64,000 bases of DNA, taken from the NCBI GenBank assembly GCA_963776925.1, contig CAVZON010000002.1, forward strand, positions 58 through 64,057. Direction: 5' to 3'. Position 1 is the stretch's first letter, and the number at the start of each line of letters is the position of its first letter. The notes below the pieces were generated by a model, which was given only the letters and a program-made list of their open reading frames with translations, did no database searches and was not told the DNA's origin. Below, one piece after another: positions 1 through 51,364 of this stretch. The stretch is from an uncultured Chloroflexia bacterium. GTDB lineage: Bacteria > Chloroflexota > Limnocylindria > Limnocylindrales > CSP1-4. The position numbers were made by a program, and so were the translations under genes.

Positions 1-1030
1 CACGTGAGAACTTCTCGGTGACGTAGCCGATGTCGGCGGCGAAGTAGGTTGGTTCCCCGTTGGACCGGTAGATCACCCGGTCCTTGTCGTGGCCGAACGC
101 GGTGGAGCGGAACCACAGTCGCGCCGTCCTGCTCGTAGACGTGGTCGTTGTCGCGCAGCCGGTCGATCGCCCGCTCGACCCAGCCGTCCCGGTGCAGCGG
201 GCCCTCGGTCGTCCAGACGTCGAAGTGGACGCCGAGGCGGTCGAGGCTGGCCTCGATCCCCGCCCGGATCTGTCCGGCCGCCCAGGGCCGAGGTCCGTCG
301 GCGGGTCGGCCCCGACCGGGACGCCGCCTGCCACACGTCGATCGGGACCGCGTCGACAGCTCGCGACGTACTCCCCCGGTAGCCTCCTCGGGCACCTCCT
401 CACCGCGCCGGAGGGCAGGGACCGAGGCACCGAGAGGTCCATCTGCCGGCCCGAGTCGTTGAAGTAGTACTCCGTGTGACCGGTGGCCACCGGCTTCGAG
501 CACCGGCTGAGCAGGTCACCCACGAACGCACCCCGGGCATTGCCGACCGTGAGGGGGCCGGTCGGGTTGGCGGACACGAACTCGACGTTGACCGCGCGTG
601 GCCGGATCGGCTCGACGCGGCCCCACGCCGCGGGATCACTGAGGATGCCGTCGACCAGGCCCTCGCAGGGCGTCTGGGCGAAGCCGGATGTTCAGGAACC
701 CTGGTGGCGCGACCTCGGCCGCTTCGACGATCGACGGTGGCCGTTAGATGCTGCGATCTCGCACCAGCTTGGCGGCGAGGAGCGTGGCGATCTCGAGCGG
801 TGCCCGGCGGTAGGGTTGGGGCCGACTTCATCGCCAGGTTGGTGGCGAGGTCGCCATGCCCCGGATCGGCCTGCTGTTCGACCTCGATCGGCGGGCGGGC
901 GTCCACTTCGAGCTCGGGCAGCGCTGCTGCGGATCGCCTCGTCCTACGCACGCGCGATGGCCTGGCGAGCCTGGGTCCTGATCGGTTCCTGGGAGCACGG
1001 GCGTCGGCGACCTCCTGCGGGCCGGACCAT
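1..1030 (-). CDS. argS: arginine--tRNA ligase (N-terminal ~60%; 3' end beyond window start; several frame breaks)
   Basis: Minus-strand translation gives ArgRS hallmarks: ...[23 protein letters not shown]..., ...[28 protein letters not shown]..., ...EYYFNDSG..., and at the window edge ...[27 protein letters not shown]. ORFs 73-336 and 400-951 are fragments of it. The start near ATG 1030 is uncertain. Confidence 0.8.
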
Positions 1031-1291
1031 GGTACCGGTCGTCAGCATGGCCCCGTGGTCAGGGTCGCGACGGGACCTTCCCGGTGCTCTACCGCACCGA
1101 ATTCCAGTCGTTGCTATGCTTTTGTGCGGTCAAGTGACGTCAATCGGACACCATCGGTACTAGACGAGTACCGGTTCCACCTGCGAACATCGGCCAACGC
1201 CGCCGCCAGGTGCACGGACAGTCCGGGGGAGCCACAGGCGGCGCCATCATCCATCCGAGGCTTTTCGGCCTCACGCTCGGGGACCTAGAAC

Positions 1292-2811
1292 ATGTCGACA
1301 CCACGTCGTCGACGCGCGGGATTTGCGCGTCGCCTTTCCTGGCTAGCGGTGGGGGCGCTGCTCGTCGCAGCCCTTGTACCCACACCGGCGCTGGCCTCCC
1401 ACGATCCGAACAGCGCGCCGAACGCCGATCGCCACGAGCTGGTCACTGGCAATCCCACATGTGATAGGATGACCAGTACTTCTCGTTCAAGATCGATGCC
1501 ACGCCGACCAACGGCACCCATGGCCCGATCATCATCAGCAACGCCACGAACTTCTCGTTCGACTGGGCGATGACCGAGCAGGCCCTCCATGACTACGACA
1601 TGTCCCGGCCGGCCATCAAGGCCAACAACGCGATCGTCTACTACTACTACTACCCGGTGACGACAGCGACACCAACCTGGTGCCCCCGTCGAACGGTGGC
1701 GACCAGCAGGCCCAGATCAGCCACGTCGAGTTCTGCTTCGACCGGCAAGCTCGGGCCGGAGCCGACGCCGACGCCGACGCCGACCGCGACGCCGGGAGCC
1801 GACGCCGACCCCGGAGCGACGCCCACGGCGACCCCGGAGCCGACGCCCACCCCCACGGCGACGCCCGAGCCGACGCCGACCGCGACCCCGGAGCCGTCCC
1901 AGTTCGCCTTCCCGACGATCGGGTTCACCCATTGCGAGAAGCCGGGCGGCCAGGGCGCGATCGTCGTCAGCGGCTTCGCGGCCACCAACGGCGGCGAGCT
2001 GGTGATCGACCCCGGTGAGAGGGCGGAACTCGTCATCACCGAGAACGGCACCTACCCGCTCGACCCGGGCGCCCACACCGCCATCGTCCGCTTCGAGGGC
2101 GAGATCGTGTCCGAGGAGCCGATCGAGTTCACGATCGGGGAGTGCCCCGTCGAGCCGACGCCGACCCCGGCGCCGACCTGGATACCCTGGCCCGACTGCG
2201 ACCCCGGCGCCGACCGCGACGCCTGAGCCGACCCCGGAGCTGGTGTTCGGCGTCCTCATCCACACGCCCGTGTGCGATGGCGACGTGCCCACCCTCGACT
2301 ATGAGGTCGAGGTCACCGGCACCGAAGCCGACACGCTGACCATCACCTTCCTGCACCCGACCGACCCGTCCCAGAACGTCGTCTACAGCGACGTGCCGTT
2401 CAGCGGCTCGCTCCTGTGGCCCGGCGCCGAGATCGACGACGAGGGCAACCCCGTCGATTGGCCGGGCTGGAGCTTCGTCGACGGTGTGTGGGTCGAGGGT
2501 GACGAGTTCGACTGGGTCCGCCCGTCGGTCCAGGTCCGCTTCGAGGCTGATGCCGATGCCGAGGCGACCGTGACCGTCGACTACCCGCCGTCCTCCCCGG
2601 ACTGCGACGCCAACCCGCCGGAAGGCGAGGTCGGTGGTGTAACGGATCTCCGGCGTGACCCTCCCGCCGACGGACATGGACCTCGCCCAGGGTGGCGTGG
2701 CCCCAGGCGACGGCTGGCGCCTCATCTCCTGCGATGGCCGGCCTCCTGGCTGGCGCCCCGCTCCTGACCCCGGCCAGCGCCGTCAGCCGCAAGGACTACC
2801 AGCAGGGCTGA
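1292..2811 (+). CDS. secreted Pro/Thr-linker protein with C-terminal TLPPTD + TM anchor-like tail (frame breaks)
   Basis: ATG 1292 followed by signal peptide MSTPRRRRAGFARRLSWLAVGALLVAALVPTPALA|SHD. The body reads across ORFs 1292-1573, 1570-2226, 1680-2018, 2015-2767 and 2655-2837 (...NGTHGPIIISNATNFSFDW..., ...VYYYYYPGDDSDTNLVPPSNGGDQQAQISHVEFCFD..., two PT linkers, ...LIHTPVCDGDVPTLDYEVEVTG...). It ends TLPPTD, spacer, hydrophobic helix, SRKDYQQG*, stop 2809-2811. Confidence 0.6.
1759..1897 (+). repeat. low-complexity coding repeat (Pro/Thr/Glu/Ala linker, ccg-acg-ccg-gag type)
   Basis: Translates as EPTPTPTPTATPGADADPGATPTATPEPTPTPTATPEPTPTATPEP. A second shorter PT stretch lies at about 2152-2240. 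Confidence 0.8.
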
Positions 2812-2835
2812 TTGCCACCGATCCCGAGCGCGCAT

Positions 2836-2870
2836 GACGGACCGCCTGGCCGATGGTCAGGCGGTCCGTC
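2836..2870 (+). terminator. perfect 13-bp stem / 9-nt loop hairpin just after the stop of the 1292-2811 gene
   Basis: GACGGACCGCCTG gccgatggt CAGGCGGTCCGTC, 25 nt after stop codon 2809-2811. There is no U-tail, which is common in GC-rich genomes. Confidence 0.5.
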
Positions 2871-3100
2871 CGTGTCTGCACGGTGTCGGGTAGGCGACCA
2901 CGATGCTGCCGCGGGCGGGACTAGGCAGCCGCATCGTCGCCCGGTAGCATCGGCCGTGGACGGGCGGGGAACCCGTCGGGGACCAGCGGAGCGCGAAGCA
3001 GATCTCGGGGACACGGGCCGCCGCCTCGCACAACGTCCGACACCGGTCGTCGTCGCCCCAGTGATGACCTGGTCGGGCTCGACCAAAACCTTTCCCAGCG

Positions 3101-3146
3101 TGGACGGACTGCCCGGCCACCTCCGGCCCGGCGGTCCGTCCATGTC
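3101..3146. repeat. inverted repeat TGGACGGAC-N24-GTCCGTCCA, sharing a 17-mer with the 2836-2876 hairpin
   Basis: GGCGGTCCGTCCATGTC (3130-3146) matches GGCGGTCCGTCCGTGTC (2860-2876) at 16/17 positions. The arms TGGACGGAC (3101-3109) and GTCCGTCCA (3134-3142) are perfectly complementary. Confidence 0.45.
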
Positions 3147-3490
3147 CGCCGCGGACGGTCCTCCATGCGGCAGGACCCTCGTTGCAGGGCCGCACCAGCA
3201 TCGTCGGTGCGGTCTGGTGGGTCTGCACCGGCACCAGGCGTGCAGACAAGTGACGACCTAGGAGTACCATCCGCGACCCTTGCGGCCTAGAGTGGCGGCT
3301 TCAAGTCCTGTCGCCGGCTGGTACTACCGGGGGTCCTGTCAGCCACCAGCAGCGCGCGAAACGGACAACAAGGCTCTCAGGGTCGCCGATGACGGCGACC
3401 AGGGGCACCGCCAAGGCGTCGCACGCTGTACGGCAATCGGCATCGGCAAATCCCGGGATCCAACGGTCGAGGGACCGGGAGGCATATCGA

Positions 3491-6400
3491 ATGACTCGGG
3501 GAATCTGGTTCGCGATGGGTGCGCGGACACGAAGGAGGCTCGTCCCGCTGTGGACCGCGCTCTTCCTGTGTTCGCTCCCATTGCAATAGTTCAGGCCGGC
3601 GCACCGGCGCCGGCCCTGGCCGCGCACGACGAGGGGATCTTCGAGCTCGAAGGAACGCGATCGACGAGGCCGCCGCCGGCGCCGACTGGGAAAACGGCCC
3701 CGAAGGGGCGGCCGACAGTTCTTCGTCGGCCGGCGATGCGAGGCCCCGATCAACGACACCAGATACTTCACGGCGGCGGCTCGAAGGACGAGAACGACAT
3801 CCCGCGTGGGGGATCACGACAACGGTCCCGGACAAGAACGAGCTGCTCGACGCCTACGCGGCGGTCTACCAGGCCGGTGGCGACACCTGGGTCTATTTCG
3901 GGGCTGACCGCTTCGACAACGACGGGACGCCCAGATCGGCTTCGGGTTCTTCCAGAACAATATCGCCATCCCAACGGCGACTTCACAGGCGAACATGTCG
4001 ATGGCGATGTCCTCATCCTCAGCGAGTACACGAACGGCGGCGTCGTCGAGCTCGGTCTGCGCGTACGAGTGGGACGGCGCCGGGGGCGGGCGAACATCGC
4101 CAGCCGTCGGCATCTGCGACCCGGCCACCGACGGCAGCAACCTGAACCTCGTCGCGGCCGGCGCCGGCGTGCGACCTGGCCGACGGCACGTTCGACATCT
4201 GCGCCCAGAACGATCGACGACGTCGAGGATGCGCCGTGGCCCTTCCTGAACAAGGACGGCGAGACCGACTTCGGCGTCGGCCAGTTCTTCGAGGGCGGCA
4301 TCAACCTGTCCGACATGTTCGGCGGCAATCCGCCGTGCTTCGGCAGCTTCCTCGTCGAGACCCGCTCCTCGCGGAGACCACGCGCAGCTGAAGGACTTCG
4401 CCCTCGGGCGACTTCAACACCTGCGCCCCGCCGGAGATCGAGACCGAGGTCTCCGACACGACGATCGATCTCGGCGGCAGCGTCACCGACACGGCGACCC
4501 TGTCCGGCGATGACGGCCCGGCTTCCGGCACCGTCGACTTCTTCGTCTGCGGACCGACGGACGCTCCGGCCGACTGCGCCGGTGGCAGCCAGATCGGCGG
4601 ATCCGTCGATGTCGACACGAGCGCGAATGGCGGGACCGCCACGTCCGATGCGTTCACGCCCACGGAAGCGGGCTTCTACTGCTTCCGCGTCCAGTACACG
4701 CCCGACGATGCGTCGCAGTACCTCGAGGCGGGCCACACGAACGACACGACCGAGTGCTTCCAGGTCCTGGCGGCCGACATCAATATCGTCAAGGTCGCAA
4801 ATCCGGAAGGCCCGGTCAGCGCCGGCGACGAGATCGGCTTCGACGTCACCGTCACCAATGACGGCACGGCACGGCCCTCGGCGTCTCGGTGACCGACACC
4901 CTGCCGACGAATGCCGGCCTCAGCTGGACGATCGCCGCGGGTTACCCGCAGGGCGATGCCGGCGCCGCGTGCAACATCGCCGCGGGTGTCCTGACCTGCA
5001 CCGACGGCTCGATGCCGAACGGTGACTCGTTCACCGTCCGCATCACCAGCCCGACGACCGCCGCCACGTGCGGCACGGTCGACAACACGGCCAACGTCAC
5101 GACCTCCAACGACGGGATCGCCGCCGACAGCGCGTCGATCACCGTCAACTGCCCGGACGTCAACGTCGTGAAGACGCCGAATGACGGCCAGGTGAACGCC
5201 GGCGATCCGGCGTCGTTCTCGATCGTGGTGTCCAACGCCGGCGCGGGCACCGCCACCATCGTCACGCTCAACGATCCCTTGCCGGCGCCGCTCACCTGGA
5301 CGCTCGGCACGGTCACCGGCGACATCAGCGGCGTCGCCTGCGCGGTCAACGGGGCGCCCGGCGCCCAGATCCTGCAGTGCGCCGACAACGACGGCATGAC
5401 GACCGGTCAGGCGTTCACGGTCACCGTGACGACGACGACCTCGTCGGCCCAGTGCGCCACCTACCCGAACGTTGCGACGGTCGACGCGACCAACGAGTCG
5501 AACGACGCTTCGGCCACCGATGACAACACGGACTCGGGCGCGATCACGGTCAACCGCCCGGACGTTACCGTCCTCAAGGAGGCTGACGCGAGCCCGGTCA
5601 ATGCCGGGGACCCGATCGGCTTCACCATCACCGTCGGCAACGCCGGTGCGGGCGTCGCGTATGACGTCGCCCTGACCGACAACCTTCCCGCCGGCATCGC
5701 CTGGTCGGAGGACAGCGACGCCTGCTCGATCGCGGCCGGTGTCCTGTCGTGCGACTTCGGCGATCTCGCGCCGGGCGCCTCGGTCGAGGTCCATCTGACC
5801 GGCACGACCGATGCGGCCGACTGCGGCACGCTCACCAACACGGCAGTCGTGTCGGCGAGCAACAAGGCGGCAGAGCGCCACGGGCAACAACACCTCGACC
5901 GACTCGGTCGTCGTGGACTGCCCCGACGTCGAGGCCCTCAAGGTCGCCGATGCCTCGCCGGTCAACGCCGGTGATGAGATCGGCTTCACGGTCACCATCG
6001 TCAACAACGGGACCGGCACGGCCTATGGCGCCACCGGCTCCGACACCCTGCCGGCCGGCATCGACTGGACGATCGACGGTGCGGCCAACGGTTGGTGATC
6101 ACCGCGGGCGTCCTGAGCTTCGGCCCGCCGATTCGCCCCCGGCGCCTCGGCCAGCGTCCACATCGTGGGCACGACCGATGCCGCCGACTGCGGTTTCGTC
6201 CCGAACACGGTCACGGTCGATGCGACCAACGAGTCGAACGACGCGTCGGTCACCGATGACAACACCGCCACGGACCTCGTCACGGTCCTGTGCCCGGACG
6301 TCCAGGTGGTCAAGACCGCGACGGACAATGCCATCAGCGCTGGCGAGGTCGCCGAATTCACCATCGTCATCACCAACATCGGCCTGGGGACGGCGAACGA

Positions 6401-8405
6401 CGTCAGCCTCACCGATACCCTGCCGAGCGGCATCGATTGGAACCTCGACGAGATCGCGTACAACGGCGTGGCGGTCGCGATCCCGATGCGCTGTGCACGA
6501 TCAGCGGCACCTCGCTGAACTGCCTGGACCTGGGTGACCTCGCCCCCGACGGCGAGATCTCCATCACCATCTTCGCCGACACCGACCTCGACGACTGCGG
6601 TCTGCGCGTCAACAACGTGACGATCGACGCGTCGAACGAGTCCGACGATCCGGAGTTCACCGAGAACAACACCGACGGGGCGACGATCCTCGTCGATTGC
6701 CCCGAGCTGGCGATCGACAAGGACGCGGACCACGTCGATCCGGTGCTCGATCGGCAACCCGATCGGCTTCACGGTCACGATCCAGAACAACGGCGATGGC
6801 ACCGCCTTCCTCCTCAGCGTCTCCGACACGCTCGACAGTGACTTCACCTGGTCGATCGAGTCGTCCGACCCCGGTTGGACCCTCGTCGGCAACGTGCTGA
6901 GCTTCCAGGGCAACCTCGCGGCCGGCGCGGACTCCTCGGTCCACGTCACGGCCCCGACGACCGTCGGTGATGGCGATCAGTGCGGGCTCGTCCCGAATGC
7001 CGCCGTCCTCGATCACCCGAGCATCCCGCCGACCACGGCGGAAGCCAGCGAGACGGTCCGCTGCCCGGGTGTCGAGCTCATCAAGGGCGCGAATGACGAT
7101 CTCGTCGAACCGAACCAGACCGTCAGCTTCCTGCTTGAGGTGCAGGTCGTGGACGGGCCGGTGACCGACGCGGTCGTCACCGACACGCTCCCGGTCGGTC
7201 AGACCTACGTCGCCGGCAGTGCCGAGTCGAAGGTCAGCCCCGCAGCGACGTTCAGTCCGGACGAGCCCACTGTGTCACCCGATGGTCGGACCCTCTCCTG
7301 GGAGTTCGCCAGCCTGGCGACCGGCGACCCGTCCGTGACGATCATGTACGACGTGACGATCGACGCCGACGCGTCGACCGCCACGCAGGTGAATGTGGCC
7401 AAGATCTGCATCTCCGAGAACGGGCTGTGCGACTCGGACGATGAGGATGTCACGCCGCAGCTGCCTGATATCGAGCTCATCAAGACCGCGGGCGACGCGG
7501 CCGACGGCGACGTCTTCGCGACGGTGCCCGGACCGGTCGACTACACCTACGAGGTCACCAACGACGGATCGCTCCCGCTGGTCGACGTCACCGTCACCGA
7601 TGACGCCGGCACGCCGGACGACCCCAGCGACGACTTCGGCGCGGACTGCCCGCAGACCACGCTGGCCGTCGCCGAGACGATGACCTGCACCTTCACGATC
7701 GACGTCCTCGCCGACACGGTCAACGTCGCGGTCGCTCGCGGCGTCACGGCCGGGGGCAACCCCGTCGAGGACGGCGACGACGCGGAGGTGGTGGTCCTCG
7801 AGTCTCGGCCTGGTCATCGACAAGTCCAACGATGCCCCGCTCGAGACCCTCGAGCTGCCCGATGGCAGCACCGCGGATCTCCCGACGGCGGACGAGGGTG
7901 AGACGGTCACGTACACGCTCGAGTACGACCTGTTCGGCGATCCGGTGACCGATGGCGTCATCACGGATGTCCTGCCTGCCGGCGTCACCTACATCGGCGG
8001 GTCGGCGACCGGCAACGCCGAGTTCACCTTCCAGGGCTACGACGCCACGACGCGCACGCTCACGTGGACGGCCGACGACGTGTCCGAGGACGGCACGGTG
8101 TCGTACCAGGCCACGGTCGACGAGGGTGCGGCCGAGCTGATCCAGCCGCTCATCAACATCGCCAGCATCGACTCGGATCAGACGGAGCCCGACGAGGCTG
8201 ACTCGCCGGTCTTCGTGCCGACCATTCCCTGGCGATCACCAATCCGCCGACGCTCCCGCCGACGGATACCATCGCCACCCCACAGGGGCAGGCCAACCCG
8301 GGCTTCACGATGATGCTCGTGCTCCTGACCCTGGCGGCCATCGTCCTCGTGGTCGGGTTCGTCACTCCGGTGCCGGCCTCGGTCCGGGAGCGGAACCGCC
8401 GCTAG
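3491..8405 (+). CDS. giant secreted surface protein: N-terminal domain + ~9 DUF11-type repeats + TLPPTD/TM/basic C-terminal tail (many frame breaks)
   Basis: GGGAGG lies 9 nt before ATG 3491. Signal peptide ...RRRLVPLWTALF/..APIAIVQAGAPAPALA|AHDEG. N-terminal domain pieces: GGSKDENDIP, WGITTTVPDKNELLDAYAAVYQAGGDTWVYFGADRFDNDG, IGFGFFQNNIAI, GDFTGEHVDGDVLILSEYTNGG, DAPWPFLNKDGETDFGVGQFFEGGINLSDMFGG. Then repeats of the form CPDVxVxK...VNAGDxIGFTITVxNxGxGxA..V.L.D.LP.G. Ends ...TLPPTDTIATPQGQANPGFTMMLVLLTLAAIVLVVGFVTPVPASVRERNRR*, stop 8403-8405. Confidence 0.75.
4774..8200 (+). repeat. tandem array of ~9 divergent DUF11-like (conserved repeat domain) coding units, period ~370-400 bp
   Basis: Unit starts recognisable at about 4774 (DINIVKV), 5150 (CPDVNVVKT), 5555 (RPDVTVLKE), 5925 (CPDVEALKV), 6293 (CPDVQVVKT), 6700 (CPELAIDKD), 7065 (CPGVELIKG), 7460 (LPDIELIKT) and 7805 (LVIDKS). 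The central units carry about 4 Cys each (C.I..GVL.C, ..CG.., ..C-PD). Confidence 0.7.
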
Positions 8406-8494
8406 CGCATCACGTCCGGTCGGTCGTCCCGCAGGCGATCGACCGGGCCATCTCGGCGCCGCAGGGCGCCGTCCCATCGGGGTCCCCGAGACCC

Positions 8495-8531
8495 GGACGG
8501 AACGCATCGCTGTCCGTGATGCGTTCCGTCC
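8495..8531. terminator. perfect 14-bp stem / 9-nt loop hairpin between convergent genes (bidirectional terminator candidate)
   Basis: GGACGGAACGCATC gctgtccgt GATGCGTTCCGTCC, between the stop of the giant gene (8405, +) and the stop of the MBL gene (8623, -). Confidence 0.55.
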
Positions 8532-8622
8532 ACCCGGTCTCTTCCCGTCGCTGTCTTCGAGAGCGACACCTGACCGGAGCGTGCCCGTCGTGGGTGCGCT
8601 CCGGTCTTCGTTCGTCGCGCGG

Positions 8623-9412
8623 CGTCAGCGCCGGCCGACGACCTCCGCGGTCGTGCCCGGCTCGACCAGGCGAGACCGGACCGTCGTACAGCGCCCGGAC
8701 GGAGGCGATCGTCGCGTCGGCGTCGTAGCCCATCTGCAGGTGGGTCAGCAGCACGGCCCCGGGCGACGTCCGGGCCGCCAGCGCCCCGACGGCCGGACCG
8801 TCGAGGTGCATCGCGCCTGGCGTGACCGGTCCGGGCCCGAACGAGACCTCGACGAGGAGCGTGTCGCCCGGCCGGATCAGCGCCGTCGAGGTCCTCCGCA
8901 CGGCCGCAGTCGCCGGAGTAGACGAGCCCCGCCGCCAGGTGGTCCGCGGCGAGCGAGACGCGATAGGCGACGCTGCTCGGCGTGTGGGCGACGCGTCGCG
9001 CGTCGAGGCGCAGGTCGCCGACGATCGTCGGCGAGGCGACCGACACCGGTTCGACGTCGAGCGCCGCGATCGTCCAGTCCCGTTCGCCGTGGAGCGCGTC
9101 CAGCCGGTCGCGCAGCCGGGCCGGGCCGATGACCCGGACGCGGCGGACCGGGTCGTGCTCCCAGCGCAGGTAGTGGCGCAGCGGGACGAGGTCGATGAAG
9201 TGGTCGGGGTGGAGGTGGCTGATGGCCACGGCCCCGAGCTCCGCCGGGTCGACGTGCGGGAAGAGGCGCGGGAACGAGCCCTGGCCGAGGTCCAGCAGGA
9301 TGGAGCTGCGGCCGCCGCGCACGAGATACGCGGCACCGGTCGCGCCGGCTCGGTCGGTGTAGGCGGGACCCGCGCCGAGGACATCGACCCGAAGGCCCGT
9401 CGCGTCTTCCAT
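8623..9412 (-). CDS. MBL-fold metallo-hydrolase (two frame breaks)
   Basis: MEDATGLRVDVLGAGPAY..., metallo-beta-lactamase motif ISHLHPDHFIDL. The C-terminal part ...GDTLLVEVSFGPGPVTPGAMHLDGPAVG...VLLTHLQMGYD... is in another frame (breaks near 8880 and 8660). Confidence 0.8.
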
Positions 9413-9443: not shown

Positions 9444-10513
9444 TCAGTCCCCCTGTCCGCGCGGCGTCGGCTGGCTCTGCTCGTCGGCGTCGCTGCCGCG
9501 GGTCCCGGGGTTGCCGCCACCGCCGCCGCCGCCACCGCCGCCGCGCGCCGGCGGTTCGGCGGGTCCGGGGTAGGTCGCGGTGTCGGGCGGGCTCGGCGCG
9601 GACGTGGGCCGTCGGCTCGGGAGCGGTGGCCTGGGTCGGCTTCGGCGTCGCGGTCGGCTTGGGCGTCGGCTCGTCGGCTTGGGTTCCTTGGTCGGCTTTG
9701 GCGTGGCCGCCGGGTCGGGGGTCGCTGCTGGACCGCCGCCGTTGCCGCCGGCATCGTTCTCGTCCGGGCCGTTCCCGCTGCCGCCACCGTTCGGCGCGGT
9801 GTCGTTGCCGATGCCGTCGACGGTCTCGGTGCTGCGGTCGATCGCTCGCTGCAGCGCGTGCTCGACGGCGTCGCTCGCCCGGTCGGGGAGGATCGCGACC
9901 AGTCCGTTCAGGACGGTGATGTTGTGCCTGGCGCCTTCCTCGATGGTCAGCATCGCGATGGCATCGTCGGACAGCAGCGCCGAGGCCGCCGCCGACTCGA
10001 GGATGGACTGGTACGCGGCGAGGGCCGCCTCCGCGGCCGCATCGTCGCCTCGCGCCGTCGCGGACGTGATCTCGGCCAGCCGCTCGTCGAGACGGGCGAG
10101 CTCGGCGACCGCGCGCTCTCGAGGTGACGCCGGCAGCGTGAGCGTCTCCGCCCAGACGCGAGCGCCGTACAGCCCGCCGCCGGGCTGGGCGGCCAGGGCC
10201 ACGCTGGACATGGCTCCGGCGGCCAGGGCGGCCGCGACCAGGAGCGCGGCTCCCCGACGCATCGTTCGCGAGCGACCCGAGGACCGCGATCGCGTCGGCG
10301 TGGACGTCGTCGCCTCGTCCGGGATCGGCGACCAGGGCGAGGGTCGCGTCGGCGCGGACGACCGAGGACTGGCGATGGGCGACGGCCAGGACGCGGGCAC
10401 GCATCCGGCTCGAGGCGGCCAGATCCGGGGTCAGGCGCGCCTCGGCGTACGCCGTCCAGGCGGCGCCGCAACTCCCCGTGATCGGCCATCAGATCCAACA
10501 TCGCGTCATCCAT
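9444..10513 (-). CDS. anti-sigma factor-like membrane protein with DUF5667-like helical ectodomain, PT/K linker and Gly10 run (frame breaks)
   Basis: ATG 10513 overlaps the sigma stop by 1 nt (TGATG). N-terminus MDDAMLDLMADHGELRRRLDAYAEARLTPDLAASSRMRARVLAV. TM RRGAALLVAAALAAGAMSSVALAA. Ectodomain ...ARVWAETLTLPASPRERAVAELARLDERLAEI.... Tail ...TPKPTKEPKPT...GGGGGGGGGG.... Confidence 0.65.
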
Positions 10514-11109
10514 CAGCGGGCCCGCTTCCTGGCGACATCCCGGTCGCCCTCGCGGCGGTCGTCGTCGTCGATCCCGAGCTGTCGCCGCAACGCGGCGATG
10601 GCCCGGAACTGGAGCCCTCGGATCGTCCCTTCCTGCTTGCCCATCACCTCGGCCGCCTCGCGGGCGGAGAGGCCGGCGAAGAAGCGAAGCGCGATGGCGT
10701 CTCGTTGCTCGTCCGTCAGCGACCCCAGCGCCACGGCCACCTCGTCCATCTCCTGACGGGCGACGGTGACCTCATCCGGTCCCGCCTCGCGCCCGGCGTG
10801 ACCGGCTGCGGCGTCCAGGTCCGCGTGGTCGTGTCGCGTCCGGACGTGGTCGATGATCGTGTTCCTGGCCAGCCGGAAGAGCCAGCCCCCGAACGGGATG
10901 CCCCGCGACTCGTAGCGCGGCAGGGCTTCCAGGGCCTTGACGAAGACCAGCTGCGTCAGGTCCTCCGCGTCCGCCGGGCGATGGACGCGGCTGGCGATGT
11001 AGCGATAGACCGGCAGGTGGTAGTGGTCGAACAGTCGACCGAAAGCCCAGGCGTCCCCCGCGCGGGCTTCCGCCACCAGCCGCTCGATCGCGGCGTCGTC
11101 GAGGGTCAC
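10513..11109 (-). CDS. ECF-type RNA polymerase sigma-70 factor
   Basis: Intact 198 aa. Region 2 (DAEDLTQLVFVKALEAL, GWLFRLARNTIIDHVR) and region 4 HTH (LSAREAAEVMGKQEGTIRGLQFRAIAALRR). Confidence 0.9.
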   Translation of the reverse strand: MTLDDAAIERLVAEARAGDAWAFGRLFDHYHLPVYRYIASRVHRPADAEDLTQLVFVKALEALPRYESRGIPFGGWLFRLARNTIIDHVRTRHDHADLDAAAGHAGREAGPDEVTVARQEMDEVAVALGSLTDEQRDAIALRFFAGLSAREAAEVMGKQEGTIRGLQFRAIAALRRQLGIDDDDRREGDRDVARKRAR

Positions 11110-12039: not shown

Positions 12040-13266
12040 TCATCCCCCGATCACCCCCAGCTCGCGGCCGACCGTCGCGAACGCCTCCAGCGCCCGGTCG
12101 AGCTGGTCGTCGGCATGGGCGGCGGTGACGATCGTGCGCAGCCGGCACTGGTCGAGGGCGACGGTCGGGAAGACGACCGGCTGGGCGAACACGCCCTCGC
12201 CGAGCAGGCGGTCGCTGAAGCGCATCGCGGTCTCCGGGTCGCCCATCATCACCGGCGTGATCGGGGTCTCGGAGCGGCCCGTGTCGAAGCCGAGCCGCGT
12301 CAGCTCCGCCTTGAACCGACGGGTGTTGGCCCACAGCCGCTCGAGCAGCTCCGGCTCGTCCTGCATCACCCGGATGGCCTCGCGGCAGGCGGCCACGACC
12401 GCCGGTGGATGCGACGTCGAGAACAGGAACGGGCGCGCGCGCTGGGTCAGGATCTCGCGCAGCGCCTCGCTCCCGGCGACGTAGCCACCGAGGGCGCCGA
12501 CCGCCTTGGACAGCGTCCCGACCTGGATGGCGACGCGGCCGTGCAGCCCGAAGTGGTCGACCGTGCCGCGGCCGTCCCGACCGAGGACGCCCGAGGCGTG
12601 GGCGTCGTCGACGAAGACGGCCGCGCCGAACGCCTCGGCCGCCTCGACGATCCCCGGCAGCGGCGCGATGTCGCCGTCCATCGAGAACACGCCGTCGGTC
12701 ACGACGAGGATCAGCCGGTGCGGCTCGCCGGAGCCCTCGCGGCCGTGCTCGCGCGCGGTCGCCAGGATCGCGCGGAGGGCCTCGACGTCGGCGTGCGGGT
12801 AGACCTTGCGCGGCGCCTTGGACAGGCGCATGCCGTCGATGATCGAGGCGTGGTTGAGGCTGTCGCTGACGATCAGGTCGGTCTCGCCGGTGATCGTCGG
12901 GATGACCCCGGTGTTGGCGGTGAAGCCGGACTGGAAGGTCAGGACGGCGGGCGTGCCCTTGAACTCGGCCAGCTCCGGCCTCCAGCGCCTCGTGCATCGA
13001 CATCGTGCCGGCGATCGTGCGGACCGCGCCGGAGCCGACCCCGAAGTCGCGGACCGCCTCGAGCGCCGCCTCGCGCAGCCGCGGATGGTGGGTCAGGCCC
13101 AGGTAGTCGTTGGAGGACAGGCTGATGAGCCGCCGCTCGTCGACCGAGACGATCGGGCCCTGGGCCGCTGCTCATCACCCGCAGGGCGCGGTAGAGGTGG
13201 CGCTCGCGAGCGCGGCGACCTCGTCGTCGAGGAACGCCAGCGGGTCGGTGCGCGGGGTCGTGGTCA
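12040..13266 (-). CDS. kbl: glycine C-acetyltransferase / 2-amino-3-ketobutyrate CoA ligase (frame breaks in the 5' third)
   Basis: Alpha-oxoamine synthase family: ...LSSNDYLGLTHHPRL..., DGVFSMDGDIAPL, FVDDAHASGVLG, GTLSKAVG (PLP Lys). Lies 23 nt downstream of tdh. The N-terminus MTTTPRTDPLAFLDDEV is read from another frame. Confidence 0.85.
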
Positions 13267-16395: not shown

Positions 16396-16771
16396 CTACG
16401 GCTCGCTCAGGTAGGTGCGCACCTCGGGCCGCAGCAGCCCACGGAACAGGAGCACCCCGAACGCCGCCACGAAGAACGGCGTGGCCGGATGGACCGGGAC
16501 TCGTCGCCAGGATGACGATGGCCGGGATGATCAGGCTGGCCAGGCCCAGGGCGAGGCCACGAGCCGCCTGCTTGCGCTGGAGCACGAGGGTCGTGGTGAA
16601 GATCGTGTACGCCAGCAGGACCATGACGAGGACGCCGAGGGGGCTGATCGGGGCGGCGATCGCCTCGTCGACGACGAAGCGCAGGCTGAGCCCGATGCCG
16701 GCGAGGATGAGGGCGGCGTAGACGAGGAGGAGCCGGATGCCGCCGGGCATCGCGCGGATCCGTTGGACCAT
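16396..16771 (-). CDS. small polytopic membrane protein (one frame break ~16500)
   Basis: MVQRIRAMPGGIRLLLVYAALILAGIGLSL...GVLVMVLLAYTIFTTTLVL...LASLIIPAIVILAT... continues in another frame as ..TPFFVAAFGVLLFRGLLRPEVRTYLSEP*. No recognised family. Confidence 0.45.
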
Positions 16772-16809
16772 GCCGCCGATCGTAGCGTCCACCCTATACT
16801 CCCCGCCTG

Positions 16810-18303: not shown

Positions 18304-18349
18304 GCCGCGGTCCGCGCAGCGGGCAGCGACGCCGCCGTGCGGCTGAGCC

Positions 18350-19470
18350 ATGGACCTGACCCTCTTCCTGCCGGCCGCGACCGCCGTCCTTGCCCTCGGC
18401 TTCAGCCTCGCCCTGTTCGACCAGTGGTGGGAGCGCCGCGGGGGGTTCCAGCTCATCTGGGCCCTCGGGATGCTCTTCTACGGGGTCGCCGCCGGCGCGG
18501 AGGCCCTGGCCGAGGTCGGCGGCTGGAACGAGCCGCTGTACCGCGTGTGGTACCTGACCGGGGCCATCTGGACGGCCGGCTGGCTCGGTCTCGGGACGGC
18601 CTATCTCCTGGGTCGGACCCGGTTCGGGTACACCTTCGCCTTCTGCCTCGCGCTGGCCGGCGTGTTCACCCTGCTGACGCAGCGCCGCTACGACTACCCG
18701 GGCGCTGGGGCGGCCCCGTTCCTGTACCTCGTCGGGGCCGATCGTGCTCGCGCTGGCCATCGCCAGCGAGACGTACTTCCAGAACGAGCGCTGGCCGCGG
18801 ATCGCCGCGGGTGGCGTGGTCGGCGTGACGCTGCTGAGCGTCGTGCTCATGGCCACGACCGCCCTGCCGCCGCCCGGCTACGCGCTCGACCCGGCGACCG
18901 GCATCCCGGTCGGCGACCTGTTCCCGGGCACGATCCGCCTGCTCACGCCGTTCATGAACATCACCGGCGCGTTCGCGCTCATCCTCGGCGCCGTCTTCTC
19001 GACGTACGTGTTCATGCCCAAGAAGCGGGTGCTGCCGTACTCGCTCGACCCCAACCAGCCGGGTGACGAGTTCCTGTTCAACCTGCTCATCGCGCCGGTG
19101 GCGATCGCGGTCAACCTCGTCGCCTCGCTGCCGGGGACCCTGCGGGCCCTGGCGACCGGCACCATCCACTCGCGCGTGCCGGCGACGATCCTCATCGCGA
19201 TCGGGGCGTTCATCCCGACCATCACCGACAGCCTGAACCGGTTCGGGATCGACGGAGCTGTTCCAGCTCGGCAAGTTCCTCGGCGTGCTCTTCCTGTTCG
19301 CCGGGTTCCTCGTGTCGATCGACGTCTTCCGCGAGATCCGCGTGCCGTTCACGGGCATCCGGCTGGCGACGGGCCGACGCGAGTCAGCCGCTGGCCCAGG
19401 TCACGGCCGCGACCGCCGAGACCATCGACCCGCCGGTCGGCGGCGGGACACCGGGAGCAGAGGTCCGCTA
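18350..19470 (+). CDS. polytopic integral membrane protein, unknown family (2-3 frame breaks; 3' end uncertain)
   Basis: Hydrophobic helices continue across ORFs 18350-19066, 18744-19922 and 19285-20652 (…LIWALGMLFYGVAAGAEAL…, …ITGAFALILGAVFSTYVF…, …LFQLGKFLGVLFLFAGFLVSIDVF…). Confidence 0.55.
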
Positions 19471-23067: not shown

Positions 23068-24737
23068 GTGGCTGACGTCGGGACGATCCTGGGTGGGCGC
23101 TACCGCGTCCTCGGCACGCTCGGGCAGGGCGGCATGGCGACGATCTACCACGCCATGGACACGCAGCTCGGGCGTGAGGTCGCGGTCAAGGTCCTGCGTC
23201 CGGAATACCTGCGCGACCCCGACTTCGGCTCGCGCTTCCGGCAGGAAGCCCAGAACGCCGCGTCGCTGAGCCACCCCAACGTCGTCACCGTCTACGACTA
23301 CGGCGAGGACCCATCCGGCCCGTACATCGTCATGGAGTACGTCGACGGCGAGGACCTGGCCACCATCCTGCGCAACAACGGCCCCCTCCCACCGACCCAG
23401 ACGGCCCGCATCGGGGCGGCCGTGGCGAAAGCCCTGGCCGCCGCGCATGCCCGCGGCATCGTCCACCGCGACGTGAAGCCGGGCAATGTGCTCATCGGTC
23501 GCGACGGACGGGTCAAGGTCGTCGACTTCGGCATCGCCCGGGCCATCGCCGAGGCCCAGATGACCCTGCCCGGGACGACCCTCGGCAGCGTGCACTACTT
23601 CAGTCCCGGAGCAGGCCCGCGGCGAGCCGACCACGGCCGCCTCCGACATCTACTCGCTCGGCATCGTCCTGTACGAGATGCTGACCGGCAAGCGGCCATG
23701 GGAAGGCGACAGCGCCGCGGCCGTCGCGCTGGCAAGGCTCAGCGGCCCGATCCCGGACCCGACCACGATCCGGCCCTCGACGCCGGCCGACATCGCCCTC
23801 GTCGTGCGCACGGCCCTCGCCCTGGACCCGGACGACCGCTACGCGACCGCGACGGCGCTGGCCGACGCGCTCGAGGCGACCCTGCCGCCCGGCTCGGCTG
23901 CCGCAGCCGCGGCCGGGGTGGCAGCGCTCGGGGCCGCCGCGGCCGGGGTCGCCAACGCCGAACCCGACCGTCGCCTACCCGCCCGACGCGTACGCCGGCG
24001 CCGCGGCGGTCGTCGATACCCCACCGCCACCGCCACCCGCGGTCGTCGAGGACGACCAGGGCACCAGCCCGATGGTCTGGGCGGCCGGGATCGCGGCGGT
24101 GCTGCTGCTCGGCGCGATCGCCTTCCTCGTCTTCCAGCTGCTGTCCGGCCCGGGCGAGCGGGAGCCGACCACCGTCGTCGTCCCGAACTTCGTCGGCCAG
24201 CTCATCGCCGACGCGACGCGTGAAGCGGATGGCCTGGAGATCACCCTGGTCCAGACGCCGGACGAGACCTCCGACCAGCCCACGGGCACGATCCTCAGCC
24301 AGGACACGCCGCCGGACACGGAGGTGCCGACCGGCTCCGAGGTCGCGGTCACCGTGGCCGCCGGGCTGACCCAGATCCCCGCGCCCGACCTGCGCAACAA
24401 GTCCGAGGCCCAGGCGGTCACCGAGCTCGTCTCTGTCGGCCTGCGGCCGGGGACCAAGACCGAGGCGTTCGACCCCACCGTGCCGGTCGGCCTGATCGTG
24501 TCGCAGAACCCGGCGCCGGGCGTGATCGTCGCCCGCGACGCGTCGATCGACTACGTCATCTCGCGTGGTCCCGAGCCGACCCCGACCCCGACGCCGACAC
24601 CCAGTCCGACGCCGGAGCCGACACCCAGTCCGACGCCGGAACCGACCCCGACCCCGACCGAAGAGCCGACCCCGACCCCGACCGAAGAGCCGACCCCGAC
24701 CCCGACCGAGGCACCCACGCCGACACCGGCCCCGTAG
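23068..24737 (+). CDS. Ser/Thr protein kinase with two PASTA-like domains and a Pro/Thr-rich C-terminal tail (two frame breaks)
   Basis: LGQGGMATIY, VAVKVL, HRDVKPGNVL, DFGIA, then SP-EQARGEPTTAASDIYSLGIVLYEMLTG after a frame bridge at ~23606. TM MVWAAGIAAVLLLGAIAFLVF. PASTA-like units VVVPNFVGQ… and QIPAPDLRNKSEAQA…. Tail EPTPTPTPTPSPTPEPTPSPTPEPTPTPTEEPTPTPTEEPTPTPTEAPTPTPAP*. Confidence 0.85.
24575..24734 (+). repeat. tandem 24-bp coding repeats (PT linker) at the 3' end of the kinase gene
   Basis: gagccgacacccagtccgacgccg x2 followed by gaagagccgaccccgaccccgacc x2, embedded in a longer ccg/acc-rich tract. Confidence 0.8.
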
Positions 24738-29730: not shown

Positions 29731-31117
29731 CTAGAAGTCGGCGGGGCGGGTCCCCAGGGTGAGCTGGATGGTCACCGTCTGGCCGTCCCGGAGGACCTCC
29801 AGCGAGACCGTCTCGTCGGGGGCGTACTGGCTCAGCGTGGCGTCGAGCGGATGCTCGTCGTCGACCGCCGTGCCGTTGATCTTGACGATGATGTCGCCGT
29901 CCTGGAGACCGGCATCGGCGGCCGGCGTCCCGGGCTGGATCGCGGGCGAGCTGCCCTCGCCGCCGCCGATCCACGCGCCGTCCTCGACCGGCAGGTCCTC
30001 TTCGGTCGCGAGCTGCTTGGTGATGGTCACGTAGCTGACGCCCATGTACGGGCGGGCCAGCTCCTTGCCCGCGACGGCCTGCTCCATGATCGGGCGGGCG
30101 ATGTTGATCGGGATGGCGAAGCCGATGCCGTTGCTGTCCCGGGCGATGGCGGTGTTGATGCCGACGACCGCGCCGTTGGCGTCGAGCAGCGGGCCACCCG
30201 AGTTGCCGGGGTTGATCGCCGCGTCGGTCTGGATGAGGTTGTTGAGGTTCTGGTTGCCGTCGGTCGTGATGCTCCGGCCCTTGGCCGACACGATGCCGCT
30301 GGTGACCGAGTTCGAGTAGGTGCCGAGCGGGCTGCCGATGGCGACGACGAGCTGTCCGACCTTGAGCGCGTCGGAGTCGCCGAGCGCGGCGGTCGGCAGG
30401 TCCGTGCCCTCGACCTTGACGATGGCGAGGTCGGTCAGGGTGTCGATGCCGTAGACGGTGCCGTTGAGGACGCCGGCCGTCGTTGAGCTCGACCTCGAGG
30501 TCCGAGCTCCCTTCGACGACGTGGCGGTTGGTCAGGATCCAGCCGGCCGCGTCGTAGATGACGCCGGAGCCGACGCCGGTCTCCGGGATGATCCCGTTGC
30601 TCGTGTCGGCGCTGCCGGAGACCGTGATCCGGACGACCGCCGGGCTGACCTTGGACGCCACGTCGATGGTGGCCGACTGCTCGTCGATGGTCACCGGCTG
30701 GCTGGCGCTGACGTTCGTGCCGCTGTTCGAGACGGGTGCCGCACCGGTGCGATCGAGCGCGCCGGTCGCGGACAGGGCGACGACGGTCCCGCCCGAGGCG
30801 AGGATCGCGGACAGCGCGGCCGCGAGGACGACGGAGCCGGTGGAGCTGCGGCCGGTCCGGCCGGCGGTGGTGGTCGTGCTGGTCGGAGGCGTCGCCACGG
30901 GCGTGGTCGACCCGGCGGACGTCACCGGGGCCGGTTCGTACCAGCGCTCCGGGGTGACGGCGGGGGCAAGCTCCGGCTCGTGGCGCGTCCAGACAGGACG
31001 CGGGTCCGGCGCCGGGGAGTAGCGGTCGACCGCGGGCTGGCCCGGCGTCACGGGGCTCGTCGGCTGGTCGTGACGTCGCGTCGCGTCGGCGTCGTCGGGA
31101 GACAGGTGGTCGGTCAT
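29731..31117 (-). CDS. htrA: HtrA/DegP-family trypsin-like serine protease with PDZ domain (frame break ~30480)
   Basis: Pro/Thr-rich N-region, TM GSVVLAAALSAILASGGTVVALSA. Triad contexts ILTNRHVV, DLAIVKV, INPGNSGGPLLD. PDZ …GLQDGDIIVKINGTAV…. Confidence 0.85.
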
Positions 31118-31181
31118 CGGGTGGGGGATCCTGTGATGGTGGGCCCGGTGAGCAGGCCGCGGTGTCCGTGGTGGTCGACCC

Positions 31182-49777: not shown

Positions 49778-51346
49778 TCAGCCGATGAGCAGGACCGCGC
49801 CGTCGCGTGGCGGCAGCGTGAGGGTGAGGCGACCGTCGACCACCGTCGCCACGTCCGGCCATGGCCCGGCCGGCTGCCCCGACCAGCGTTGGGTCGCGAA
49901 CGTCCGGCCATCCAGCCAGGCCAGGTCGATCGACAGCTCGTGTGGCCCGTGCCCGCTGTTGATCGCCACGAGGGCGACCGCCGGCCCGTCCTCACGCACG
50001 AACGCGATCGCCGGCCCGTCCGCGGCGACGACCCGGAACGAGCCATGGCGCAACACCGGCTGCGCATGCCGCAGGGCCGCCGCTCCGGACATCGCCGCCA
50101 GCAGTGGTCGGTCCCACGTCTCGGGGTGGTCCCACGGGAAGGCCCCGCGGTTGTGTGGGTCCAGCTCGCCGGTCATCCCGACCTCGTCGCCGTAGTAGAT
50201 CGACGGCGCGCCCGGGACGGTCATCTGGAGCAGCGTCGCCAGCCGCAGCGACGTCGTGTCGCCGCTGACCATCGACAGGAAGCGCGGCGTGTCGTGGCTG
50301 TCGAGCAGGTTGAGCTGCGACGCGATGACCGACGGCGGATACACGGTCAACGCGCGCTCCAGCCGGCCGGCGAAGGTCGGGCCATCCTCCTCGCGCACGG
50401 CGGCGCCGATCGTGTAGTGCTGGTCGAGCACCCGTCGATCCAGGTGGCCGGCCCCGACGAACGAGGTGATGGCCGCGCCGAGCGGGTAGTTCATGAGCGC
50501 GTCGTACTGGTCGCCCTGGAGGACGTGCGGCTGCTCGTTCCAGATCTCGGCCACGATGTACGCATCGGGGTCGATGGCCTTGACCCGCCGGCGGAACTCG
50601 CGCCAGAACTCGTCGGGGACCTCGTTCGGGACATCCAGCCGCCAGCCGTCGGCGCCGAACCGGATCCAGTGCTCGGCGACGTCGAGCAGGTAGGACCGGA
50701 CGGCGGGATTGTCGGTGTTCAGCTTGGGCAGCGCGGGGAGGCCCCACCAGGCCTGGTAGCCGAAGCGGGCCACCGAGTCATGGCCGGCCCGTTGCTCATC
50801 GGTGATCGTCGCCAGGTCGACGGTCACATCCTCCAGCGGGTAGGCACGCACCGTGCGGCCGGCCGCGAGCGCCTCGCGGTCGAAGTAGAACCAGTCGACG
50901 TAGGGCGAGGCAAGCCCCGCCTCCATCACGTGGTGGAACGGCCAGAACCCGCGGCTGGCGTGGTTGAACACGCCGTCGAGCACGAATCGCATGCCCCGGG
51001 CGTGACAGGCGTCGATGAGCTCGCGCAGCGCCGCGTCACCGCCGAGGAGCGGGTCGACCGACAGGTAGTCATAGGTGTGATAGCGGTGATTCGACGCCGA
51101 CTGGAAGATCGGGTTGCAGTAGATGGCCGTGGCGCCGAGTGCCTGGATGTGGTCGAGATGGTCGGCGATCCCGTACAGGTCGCCGCCCTTGAACCCGTAC
51201 ACGGTCGGCGGGCTGTCCCACGGCTCCAGCGGCCCGGGCGCCGGCACCCGGCCGCTCCGGGCGAAGCGGTCGGGGAAGACCTGGTAGAAGACCGCGTCCC
51301 GGACCCAGGCTGGGGTCCAGGACGCGTCCGATGCGGTGTCGGTCAC
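49778..51346 (-). CDS. GH13 alpha-glucosidase / neopullulanase-like enzyme
   Basis: Intact 522 aa. FYQVFPDRFA; regions I VLDGVFNHAS, II GWRLDVPNE, III YIVAEIWNE, IV LLDSHDTPR. Confidence 0.88.
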   Translation of the reverse strand: MTDTASDASWTPAWVRDAVFYQVFPDRFARSGRVPAPGPLEPWDSPPTVYGFKGGDLYGIADHLDHIQALGATAIYCNPIFQSASNHRYHTYDYLSVDPLLGGDAALRELIDACHARGMRFVLDGVFNHASRGFWPFHHVMEAGLASPYVDWFYFDREALAAGRTVRAYPLEDVTVDLATITDEQRAGHDSVARFGYQAWWGLPALPKLNTDNPAVRSYLLDVAEHWIRFGADGWRLDVPNEVPDEFWREFRRRVKAIDPDAYIVAEIWNEQPHVLQGDQYDALMNYPLGAAITSFVGAGHLDRRVLDQHYTIGAAVREEDGPTFAGRLERALTVYPPSVIASQLNLLDSHDTPRFLSMVSGDTTSLRLATLLQMTVPGAPSIYYGDEVGMTGELDPHNRGAFPWDHPETWDRPLLAAMSGAAALRHAQPVLRHGSFRVVAADGPAIAFVREDGPAVALVAINSGHGPHELSIDLAWLDGRTFATQRWSGQPAGPWPDVATVVDGRLTLTLPPRDGAVLLIG

Positions 51347-51364
51347 GGGCGGGCGGTCGACCCG

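Follow-up and report, generated by a model that had tools for sequence, protein, structure and literature searches.

A conserved C-terminal tail on adhesin- and pilin-like proteins of Limnocylindria, matched by no curated model, as a candidate anchoring or sorting signal

Introduction

In the Limnocylindria, bacteria that are abundant in soils and freshwaters and are uncultured, we describe a C-terminal tail shared by two neighbouring surface-protein genes, which is a conserved, lineage-restricted and modular domain at the C-terminus of adhesin- and pilin-type cargo proteins and is described by no curated model. The two genes lie in a stretch of 64,000 nucleotides from an uncultured Chloroflexia bacterium (GTDB order Limnocylindrales; assembly GCA_963776925.1, contig CAVZON010000002.1, positions 58 to 64,057 of the forward strand), referred to here as the window. 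They are a gene for a small secreted surface protein (gene 1, 1292-2811, + strand) and a giant fibrillar-adhesin gene (3491-8405, + strand, ~1,600 amino acids). The tail is real and was not curated previously, and it is a credible new member of the C-terminal sorting and anchoring signals. Judged from the sequences compared here, it is probably a lineage-specific modular anchoring or sorting domain of Limnocylindria carried by fibrillar-adhesin and pilin-like proteins, and we lean towards the view that it is a sorting signal that undergoes processing and does more than anchor the protein. We know of no account of how Limnocylindria build their cell surface.

The tails of the two window genes

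The tail of the giant gene is read in a single frame from 8232 to 8405 as AITNPP-TLPPTD-TIATPQGQA-NPGF-TMMLVLLTLAAIVLVVGFV-TPVPA-SVRERNRR-stop. The core motif TLPPTD (8250-8267, located by translation, six-frame search and a shuffle test) is followed by a spacer, TIATPQGQA, and the boundary NPGF (together 8268-8306, the boundary at 8295-8306). Next come a transmembrane helix of 19 residues (8307-8363), which is kept in all homologues with an intact tail, and a cytoplasmic end (8364-8405) made of TPVPA (8364-8378), SVRERNRR (8379-8402) and the stop codon (8403-8405). A single frame change at a CCC homopolymer (8228-8230), just upstream of the tail, connects it to the body of the protein. The close relative P0021 is unbroken over this junction, where it reads ...VPTVPLAITNPPTLPPTDTIATP, with VPTVPLAITNPP at the homopolymer. 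The body itself consists of tandem CLIPPER/DUF11 and CLIPPER_2/DUF7507 repeats according to Pfam and NCBIfam, and intact orthologues of 1,902 and 1,905 amino acids map on the giant gene by tblastn as ten collinear pieces in alternating frames.

Gene 1 was delineated from open reading frames (ORFs), three-frame translation, coding frames by third-position G+C (GC3) and tblastn. Its product has a Sec-type N-terminal signal (MSTPRRRRAGFARRLSWLAVGALLVAALVPTPALA, 1292-1396), a Pro/Thr linker, a C-terminal domain without a Pfam match and the tail; N-termini of the form RLARRLSWL... are also found in small cargo proteins of other loci. The core TLPPTD stands at 2658-2675 (six-frame search, shuffle test and translation), followed by the spacer MDLAQGGVAP and the boundary GDGW (2676-2717, the boundary at 2706-2717), the helix RLI(L)L(A)MAGLLAGAPLL (2718-2766), which is broken by two 1-nt deletions near 2724-2733, and the cytoplasmic end TPASAVSRKDYQQG with its stop (2767-2811), which reads TPA..(I/V)RKDDRRR in orthologues. 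To bring this tail into one frame, two missing bases are needed near 2640-2655 and two near 2724-2733. An intact orthologue in the syntenic locus L001, which ends in ITLPPTDTALGGSTTPSGDGWRLVLLAMAGVLAAALLLTPAGVVIRKDDRRR and a stop, matches the bridged reading GDGWRLI/LLAMAGLLAGAPLLTPASAVSRKDYQQG, and about 20 more orthologues agree with it, the intact helices reading WRLILLAMAGLMAAALLL. Fragments of the gene 1 tail align by tblastn to the tail of a small protein at L017, and the body is similar, by eye, to L013 1345-2322. Small tail-bearing proteins at the position of gene 1 in other genomes have related architectures, several with a SpaA prealbumin-like domain, and one of them shows sub-threshold similarity to SpaH/EbpB LPXTG pilins.

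The coincidence of the two motifs is not expected by chance. The back-translated TLPPTD pattern occurs twice in the DNA of the window against 0.01 occurrences expected from shuffles, the hexapeptide appears in the six-frame translation of the window in the two tails and nowhere else, and when a hidden Markov model (HMM) of the tail was run on the window, fragments of these two tails were the top three matches.

Both genes required frame bridging, and a shared tail created by that bridging, or by misassembly of an error-rich window, had to be considered. Indels are indeed many: single-base frame breaks, often at short homopolymers, run throughout the otherwise good coding sequence of the window (1-64000), with ~9 in the giant gene and ~4 in gene 1, 13 or so together. 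The same tails nevertheless recur on intact orthologues of independent origin: many separate assemblies have them, short-read metagenome-assembled genomes (MAGs) among these, and so do uninterrupted ORFs of 1,900 amino acids, and the artefact is thereby effectively refuted. A first-pass annotation of the window had claimed, from bridged frames, that the two neighbouring proteins share TLPPTD, a helix and a basic tail; intact orthologues reproduce those readings, and the shared tails are confirmed. Loss of the helix in corrected C-termini had been named beforehand as one refuting outcome, and the orthologues P0021 and L001 both keep the helix. The pattern of frame breaks points to long-read assembly error and not to pseudogenes. 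The MFD assemblies are Nanopore MAGs, which would explain the indels.

Frame breaks were also noted in the KBL, Ser/Thr kinase and metallo-beta-lactamase (MBL)-fold genes of the window, for example at 12046-13168 and 23074-24563, and several homologues in ENA carry the same artefact, with endings such as ...RATRASR. The G+C content of the whole window is ~72%; it is 0.67-0.69 at 1-8000 (the surface-protein genes) and 50000-54000 (maltodextrin ABC-transporter genes), compared with 0.72-0.75 elsewhere.

Anatomy and conservation of the tail

The last domain and tail of the giant gene have 48 homologues, all of them metagenomic, and those with an intact frame end near-identically. Alignment of 26 tails gave the consensus ..T..xT.PPTDT(x7)SNPGFxLMLxLLALAxxVLxxGFVTPVPAxVRRRxRR, in which T8, P10, G25 (the G of NPGF), L30, P47 and R53 are invariant and P11, T12 and P49 are conserved in at least 90%. 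From the N- to the C-terminal side, the order of elements is the Thr/Pro-rich exoplasmic motif [A/G]-x-T-[G/A]-T-P-x-x-T-[L/P]-P-x-T-[D/S], a polar spacer, a boundary of small and aromatic residues, the helix, TP(V)PA and an Arg-rich end.

Two subtypes can be told apart by the boundary, which is NPGF in type 1 (the giant gene) and GDGW followed by R in type 2 (gene 1). Type-2 tails read GGV(G/E)GATGTP..(V)TLPPTDT, ~12 residues, then (G/S/N)D(G/S/A)WR(L/I)(I/V)LLAMAG..AALLLTPA...RKDDRRR, with GDGW, GDSW or NDAW and the following R conserved among them, and many type-1 variants have PGSS, SGSS or PGMS in place of the NPGF-type boundary. Between motif and hydrophobic run, type-1 tails mostly have a spacer of 10-13 residues and type-2 tails one of 14-15. 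The run itself measures ~17-22 residues, and the tail that follows it is mostly 9-13 residues long with an average of 4-5 Lys or Arg. The first-pass annotation had pointed to a PGF at the start of the helix, a statement that holds for the giant-gene subtype only, since the gene 1 subtype has GDGW and then R.

Within the core, [L/P/A]-P-x-T-[D/S/N], the forms PPTD, PPTS, PQTD and PPTN dominate the motif counts. T stands at -2 in 253 of 302 unique tails, and L, P or A follows it at -1. Variation is greatest at position 3 (PQTD, PRTD, PSTD, PATD) and the last position varies among D, S and N (PPTS, PPTN), while P2 and T4 are nearly always kept. This conservation is that of the sortase pentapeptide LPxTG, where P2 and T4 are fixed and position 3 is free. 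It had been proposed that the motif is not LPXTG or LAXTG, Asp replacing Gly, and that the spacer is longer than in sortase substrates; the core and the 10-15 residues that separate it from the helix bear this out. The variant closest to classical LPXTG in the set is the tail at L029 7667-8425 (+), which reads KTLPETSTIEPTSPVNSG, a helix and ARKRD and has the core LPETS (TLPETS).

Breadth, cargo and taxonomic range

A profile of the 57-residue tail was searched against 1.84 billion representatives and matched 346 clusters (50% identity) with E<=1e-3, a number that falls to 151 with E<=1e-10. This exhaustive search was needed to recover full-length cargo, a word-indexed search with the tail profile having returned short fragments only. 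The profile match lies within a few residues of the C-terminus in nearly all proteins among the matches listed, which range from 60 to 1,817 amino acids. DUF11 is contained in 62 of the 70 longer representatives, and others contain DUF7507, DUF7927, DUF5979, SpaA, Big_3_5, GBS104-like Ig or VWA domains; the last domain is one other than the usual DUF11 in ~15 of 113 representatives. Type-1 tails are attached to DUF11, DUF7507-like, SpaA/DUF5979-like and VWA-containing bodies, and type-2 tails to Pro/Thr (PT)-linker and SpaA/DUF5979-type proteins and to the gene 1 family. By domain content, the cargo is made up of fibrillar-adhesin or pilin-type proteins, the kinds that are anchored by sortases in Gram-positive bacteria. 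The motif thus extends well beyond the two proteins in which it was noticed, to hundreds of orthologues and paralogues with unrelated cargo domains.

Two scans of one genome per GTDB species, with alignments tighter than that of the 26 tails, yielded 84 distinct loci (34 + 51), nearly all titled Candidatus Limnocylindrales, Limnocylindria, Chloroflexota or 'uncultured Chloroflexia ... MFD...'. Six loci (L019, L022, L027, L081, L051 and L054) are labelled Verrucomicrobiia, Methylomirabilota, Acidimicrobiales or Anaerolineaceae. Mis-binning or mislabelling is the likely cause, because several of these contigs are shorter than 8 kb and their tails closely resemble those of Limnocylindria. In total, 162 tail-bearing ORFs were counted in 90 loci (1.33 Mb), and 49 of the 90 loci hold 2-4 of them on one strand. 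The tail therefore shows the features by which sorting signals are generally recognised: a signature motif followed by a helix and basic residues, placed at the very C-terminus of multiple unrelated cargo proteins of one genome and confined to a restricted lineage.

Searches against known sorting signals

No Pfam or NCBIfam sorting-signal model reached its threshold with either tail subtype or with full-length cargo, in agreement with the proposal that the signal is undescribed, and in the accessible text of the literature on Limnocylindria or Chloroflexi/Chloroflexota that deals with sortases, exosortases or sorting signals this signal is not described. Sub-threshold NCBIfam similarities (best E=0.003-0.05) were obtained to MYXO-CTERM (best E=0.027), Heimdall-CTERM, Loki-CTERM, PVV-CTERM and S-layer glycoprotein families (best E=0.014, two of them ArtA-dependent by NCBIfam name). 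The only sortase-type similarity below threshold was to a LAVTG sortase-substrate family (E=3.7).

These similarities bear on the possibility that the tail is an exosortase- or archaeosortase-type signal, in which NPGF would be recognised by a polytopic membrane enzyme encoded elsewhere in the genome and TLPPTD would be a linker or glycosylation element. NPGF lies directly at the start of the type-1 helix with an invariant G, and all the sub-threshold families except LAVTG are S-layer families or signals that we take to be of the exosortase, archaeosortase or myxosortase type (MYXO-, Heimdall-, Loki- and PVV-CTERM). Haloarchaeal S-layer glycoproteins, moreover, carry a Thr-rich glycosylated stretch just before PGF-CTERM. 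Against this, GDGW and R in type 2, and PGSS, SGSS and PGMS in many type-1 variants, replace PGF, so that the boundary shows less conservation than TxPPT[DS]; PGF-CTERM with ArtA is not known outside the archaea; and no exosortase-family gene was seen in any locus. The HMM matches fall far below cut-off even at the best E of 0.003 and could reflect composition alone, such weak similarities being what a helix followed by an arginine cluster would produce. We regard an exosortase-type signal as quite improbable.

If the tail were a class E sortase (LAXTG) signal in degenerate or extended form, the true site would be a pentapeptide resembling LAxTG that precedes TLPPTD by a few residues. Some tails do have LAATG, LAETG, LPATG or LAETS 4-9 residues upstream of the core, such as PLAATGTPRITLPPTD and VLAETGRPVITLPPTD. 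An upstream L[PA]xT[GASNDH] is present, however, in only 43 of 302 unique tails and L[PA]xTG in 11 of 302, the window tails carry LAITN and GVT..ISGV at that place, and the site would sit ~30 residues from the helix. The sortase-signal models TIGR01167 and PF00746 were absent from the matches for tails and full-length cargo alike (E ceilings 0.01 to 10). This explanation is very doubtful, and the upstream pentapeptide was rejected as a general sortase site on the count of 43 in 302 tails.

Tails with such an upstream LAxTG- or LPxTG-like pentapeptide include those of P0100, P0009, P0194, P0085, L044 10185-11447 and L032 2346-3491; the pentapeptide may be what is left of an ancestral sortase signal.

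Anchor or processed signal

From the sequence, three steps can be proposed. An N-terminal signal peptide would export the protein. The C-terminal helix would then act as a stop-transfer element, the positive-inside tail holding the protein N-out/C-in in the cytoplasmic membrane, a step that is near-certain from the composition of the tail. Finally, a dedicated enzyme might recognise the exoplasmic motif and either cleave or transfer the protein at [L/P]-P-x-T|[D/S] by the logic of sortases or modify it. Export through the N-terminal signal can safely be inferred, as can anchoring of the protein by the helix, its Arg-rich end facing the cytoplasm, and processing at the LPxTG-like pentapeptide is plausible.

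The fullest version of the third step makes the tail the cargo signal of an undescribed sorting system found only in Limnocylindria, whose enzyme would belong outside the sortase, exosortase/archaeosortase, rhombosortase and CPBP families and would recognise both the site T-[L/P]-P-x-T-[D/S], ~12-15 residues above the membrane, and the cytoplasmic TP(V)PA. In this complete form we consider the proposal unlikely.

The main alternative is a plain uncleaved transmembrane anchor, whose Thr/Pro stalk would be a site of O-glycosylation (O-mannosylation) or of wall contact, with no dedicated sorting enzyme. The helix and Arg-rich tail suffice for anchoring, and the motif is Thr-rich in a Pro context with long PT linkers upstream. 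A PMT_2 gene resembling protein O-mannosyltransferase is present in the cargo island of five loci (L090, L063, L053, L029 and L023), directly after the cargo in the three inspected (L090, L053 and L063), and a PIG-V-like GT-C gene is present in two. These genes lie on the - strand between the cargo and the MBL-fold gene (L090 14417-15724, L063 11561-12853 and 10278-11486, L053 12118-13359), and a GT-C-like membrane protein was noted by eye ~3 kb from the cargo at L078. Such insertions hint that the PT-rich linkers or the tail motif could be O-glycosylated. On the other side, it would be unexpected for a mere anchor or glycosylated stalk to retain an LPxTG-like pattern, at constant spacing from the helix, in both subtypes and on cargo that is otherwise unrelated; the cytoplasmic TP(V)PA is conserved as well, which suggests a specific partner; and glycosyltransferase genes occur in only a few of the 90 loci. 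We judge a plain anchor to be rather unlikely on balance.

Several observations weigh against a processed signal, some of which favour the plain anchor directly. The first position of the pentapeptide is variable (L, P or A), and the 10-15 residues between motif and helix exceed the spacing of classical LPXTG signals. In the giant family the tail is 48% identical compared with 44% for the preceding domain, and because it barely exceeds its neighbour, part of its conservation may be shared descent; with so weak an excess, it is the variety of cargo and the existence of two subtypes that carry the case for modularity. Most cargo is concentrated in one genomic island, where duplication in place could have spread a plain anchor. 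In the window, Pfam scans of the ORFs other than those of the surface proteins and the maltodextrin cluster brought up no sortase, exosortase, rhomboid or CPBP gene, in agreement with the first-pass annotation; FolC, FolP, isocitrate lyase and the maltodextrin genes were identified by eye only. The sole protease found in the window is an HtrA-like gene (29734-31135). Nor was a sortase, exosortase/archaeosortase, rhomboid or CPBP gene seen among the annotated neighbours at six loci or the recurrent neighbour clusters at 90 loci, in neighbourhoods of up to 20 kb around the matches with recurrent uncharacterised neighbours scanned against Pfam and NCBIfam.

What the recurrent neighbours do comprise is housekeeping synteny, an MBL-fold phosphodiesterase-like gene, ECF sigma and anti-sigma genes, a HEYDH lipoprotein and occasional GT-C glycosyltransferases. 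The lipoprotein (~430 amino acids, with a lipobox-like LAAC and a HEYDH that resembles zinc-protease motifs) is encoded just beyond argS in 47 loci, for example at L043 6021-7331 (+), a position that falls outside the left end of the window. It has no Pfam match and reaches 157 bits, where 200 are required, with the NCBIfam model of the Hvo_1808 family of surface proteins, HVO_1808 figuring in the literature only as a model haloarchaeal lipoprotein. It is possibly an exoplasmic protease beside the island. Neither this lead nor PMT_2 is evidence of processing.

A processed sorting signal is the reading that we continue to favour, with qualification. The description of the tail as a candidate sorting signal stands in so far as it is a conserved, undescribed, signal-like C-terminal module; the further idea of cleavage or transfer by a dedicated enzyme does not carry over to the same degree, as an uncleaved anchor fits most of the data equally.

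The cargo island and other features of the window

All-against-all clustering of 1,273 ORFs from the 90 loci and the window showed that all but about five loci share one island, with the order argS, 1-3 small cargo genes with or without a giant cargo gene, an MBL-fold gene (convergent), a DUF5667 anti-sigma gene, ECF sigma, PHP, KBL and TDH. The order in the window is identical, and its two genes appear as one small type-2 and one giant type-1 cargo of the island beside argS.

The right-hand neighbour of the cargo in the window is a frameshifted MBL-fold hydrolase gene (8410-9325, - strand; Pfam Lactamase_B_2), which is convergent with the cargo and whose cluster is present in 65 of 91 sources (the 90 loci and the window). 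An orthologue reaches 119 bits with the model of a cyclic-nucleotide phosphodiesterase family, for which the cut-off is 400, and Pfam, NCBIfam and synteny gave no sign that the gene encodes a sorting enzyme. It is followed by a DUF5667 anti-sigma-like gene (9444-10400, - strand; Pfam DUF5667 at 26.6 bits, cut-off 27) and an ECF sigma factor gene (10513-11109, - strand; Pfam Sigma70_r2/r4/ECF). The MBL-fold gene is always convergent with the cargo and the anti-sigma/ECF pair stands next to it, in the same order in ~60 loci. From its position, the pair may regulate the surface-protein island. At the non-syntenic L087 (559-7963), a type-2 cargo was noted by eye beside a run of TadE/TadG-type pilus-assembly-like proteins.

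The giant protein begins with the signal region MTRGIWFAMGARTRRRLVPLWTALFLCSLPLQ (3491-3586, + strand), and the same N-termini were found in many representatives, for example MASRGIWHFMSARTRRSLALSWSALFVLSL. An N-terminus of the form M(S/A)RG(I/L)W..MSARTRRSL(T/A)L.W(T/S)ALFV.SL..QY is common to the giant adhesins, among them P0109, P0115, P0118, P0123 and P0132, and its TRRSL is a twin-arginine-like stretch. It could represent a specialised or twin-arginine translocation (Tat)-like signal peptide that pairs with the C-terminal tail.

Two further membrane proteins of the window have no Pfam match, namely a polytopic protein of ~300 amino acids split by a frameshift (18347-19253, +) and a small protein of ~127 amino acids that is conserved in synteny (16502-16783, -).

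Implications

A lineage-specific signal on large adhesin- and pilin-like proteins offers a handle by which the surface proteome of the Limnocylindria could be listed with one HMM. The tail is also a concrete query for phylogenetic profiling towards a putative enzyme, which would be of a new class or else a divergent sortase that accepts Asp or Ser as the fifth residue. Curated models of the two subtypes would improve the annotation of hundreds of 'hypothetical' and 'DUF11 repeat' proteins, and models of the tail would help to recognise gene ends in error-rich long-read MAGs.

Comparison with known systems

The closest formal parallel is the LPXTG signal of sortase substrates (TIGR01167, PF00746). 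Both end the protein with a pentapeptide, then a hydrophobic helix and last a basic tail, both follow an xPxTx pattern, and both are found on adhesin- or pilin-like cargo with isopeptide domains, several cargo genes being clustered. The tail differs in having D, S or N and not G at position 5 and L, P or A at position 1, in the 10-15 residues with NPGF or GDGW that precede the helix, in the conserved TP(V)PA at the inner boundary, in its lack of an HMM match and of a sortase gene found nearby, and in its taxon, the Chloroflexota. In 1.39 Mb of Limnocylindria sequence no canonical LPXTG substrate was found except the TLPETS variant of this same tail. Variant sortase motifs come somewhat nearer, among them NPQTN of SrtB, (S/P)PxTG of C. 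difficile, LPNTA of class D and LAXTG of class E: a residue other than Gly at position 5 and Pro at position 1 are tolerated there, and PPPTD and LPPTD resemble (S/P)PxTG. D or S in the fifth position, combined with the spacing seen here, is not known from any sortase class.

With PGF-CTERM and ArtA, the type-1 tail shares a PGF exactly at the start of the helix, a basic tail after it and a Thr-rich stretch just upstream. Here, in contrast, the host is bacterial, PGF is missing from type 2 and from many type-1 variants, conservation is highest in an element 10-15 residues away from the membrane on its outer side, the HMM matches fall short of significance, and the loci showed no archaeosortase gene. 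The PEP-CTERM/exosortase, MYXO-CTERM, GlyGly-CTERM/rhombosortase, Heimdall-, Loki- and PVV-CTERM systems have the same tripartite logic, restriction to a lineage and many cargo proteins per genome; the signature PEP, GG and Cys of the PEP-, GlyGly- and MYXO-CTERM signals are absent from the tail alignments, and scores are far below the cut-offs.

The cargo, finally, can be compared with the fibrillar adhesins built from CLIPPER (DUF11), which is described in the accessible part of the source as an isopeptide-bonded CnaA-like domain that forms their stalk (PMC12617251). The anchors given in that part are an OmpA-like domain and LPXTG, with no mention there of the present tail, whereas the giant cargo protein of the window has the architecture of the same family, a stalk of tandem CLIPPER and CLIPPER_2 domains.

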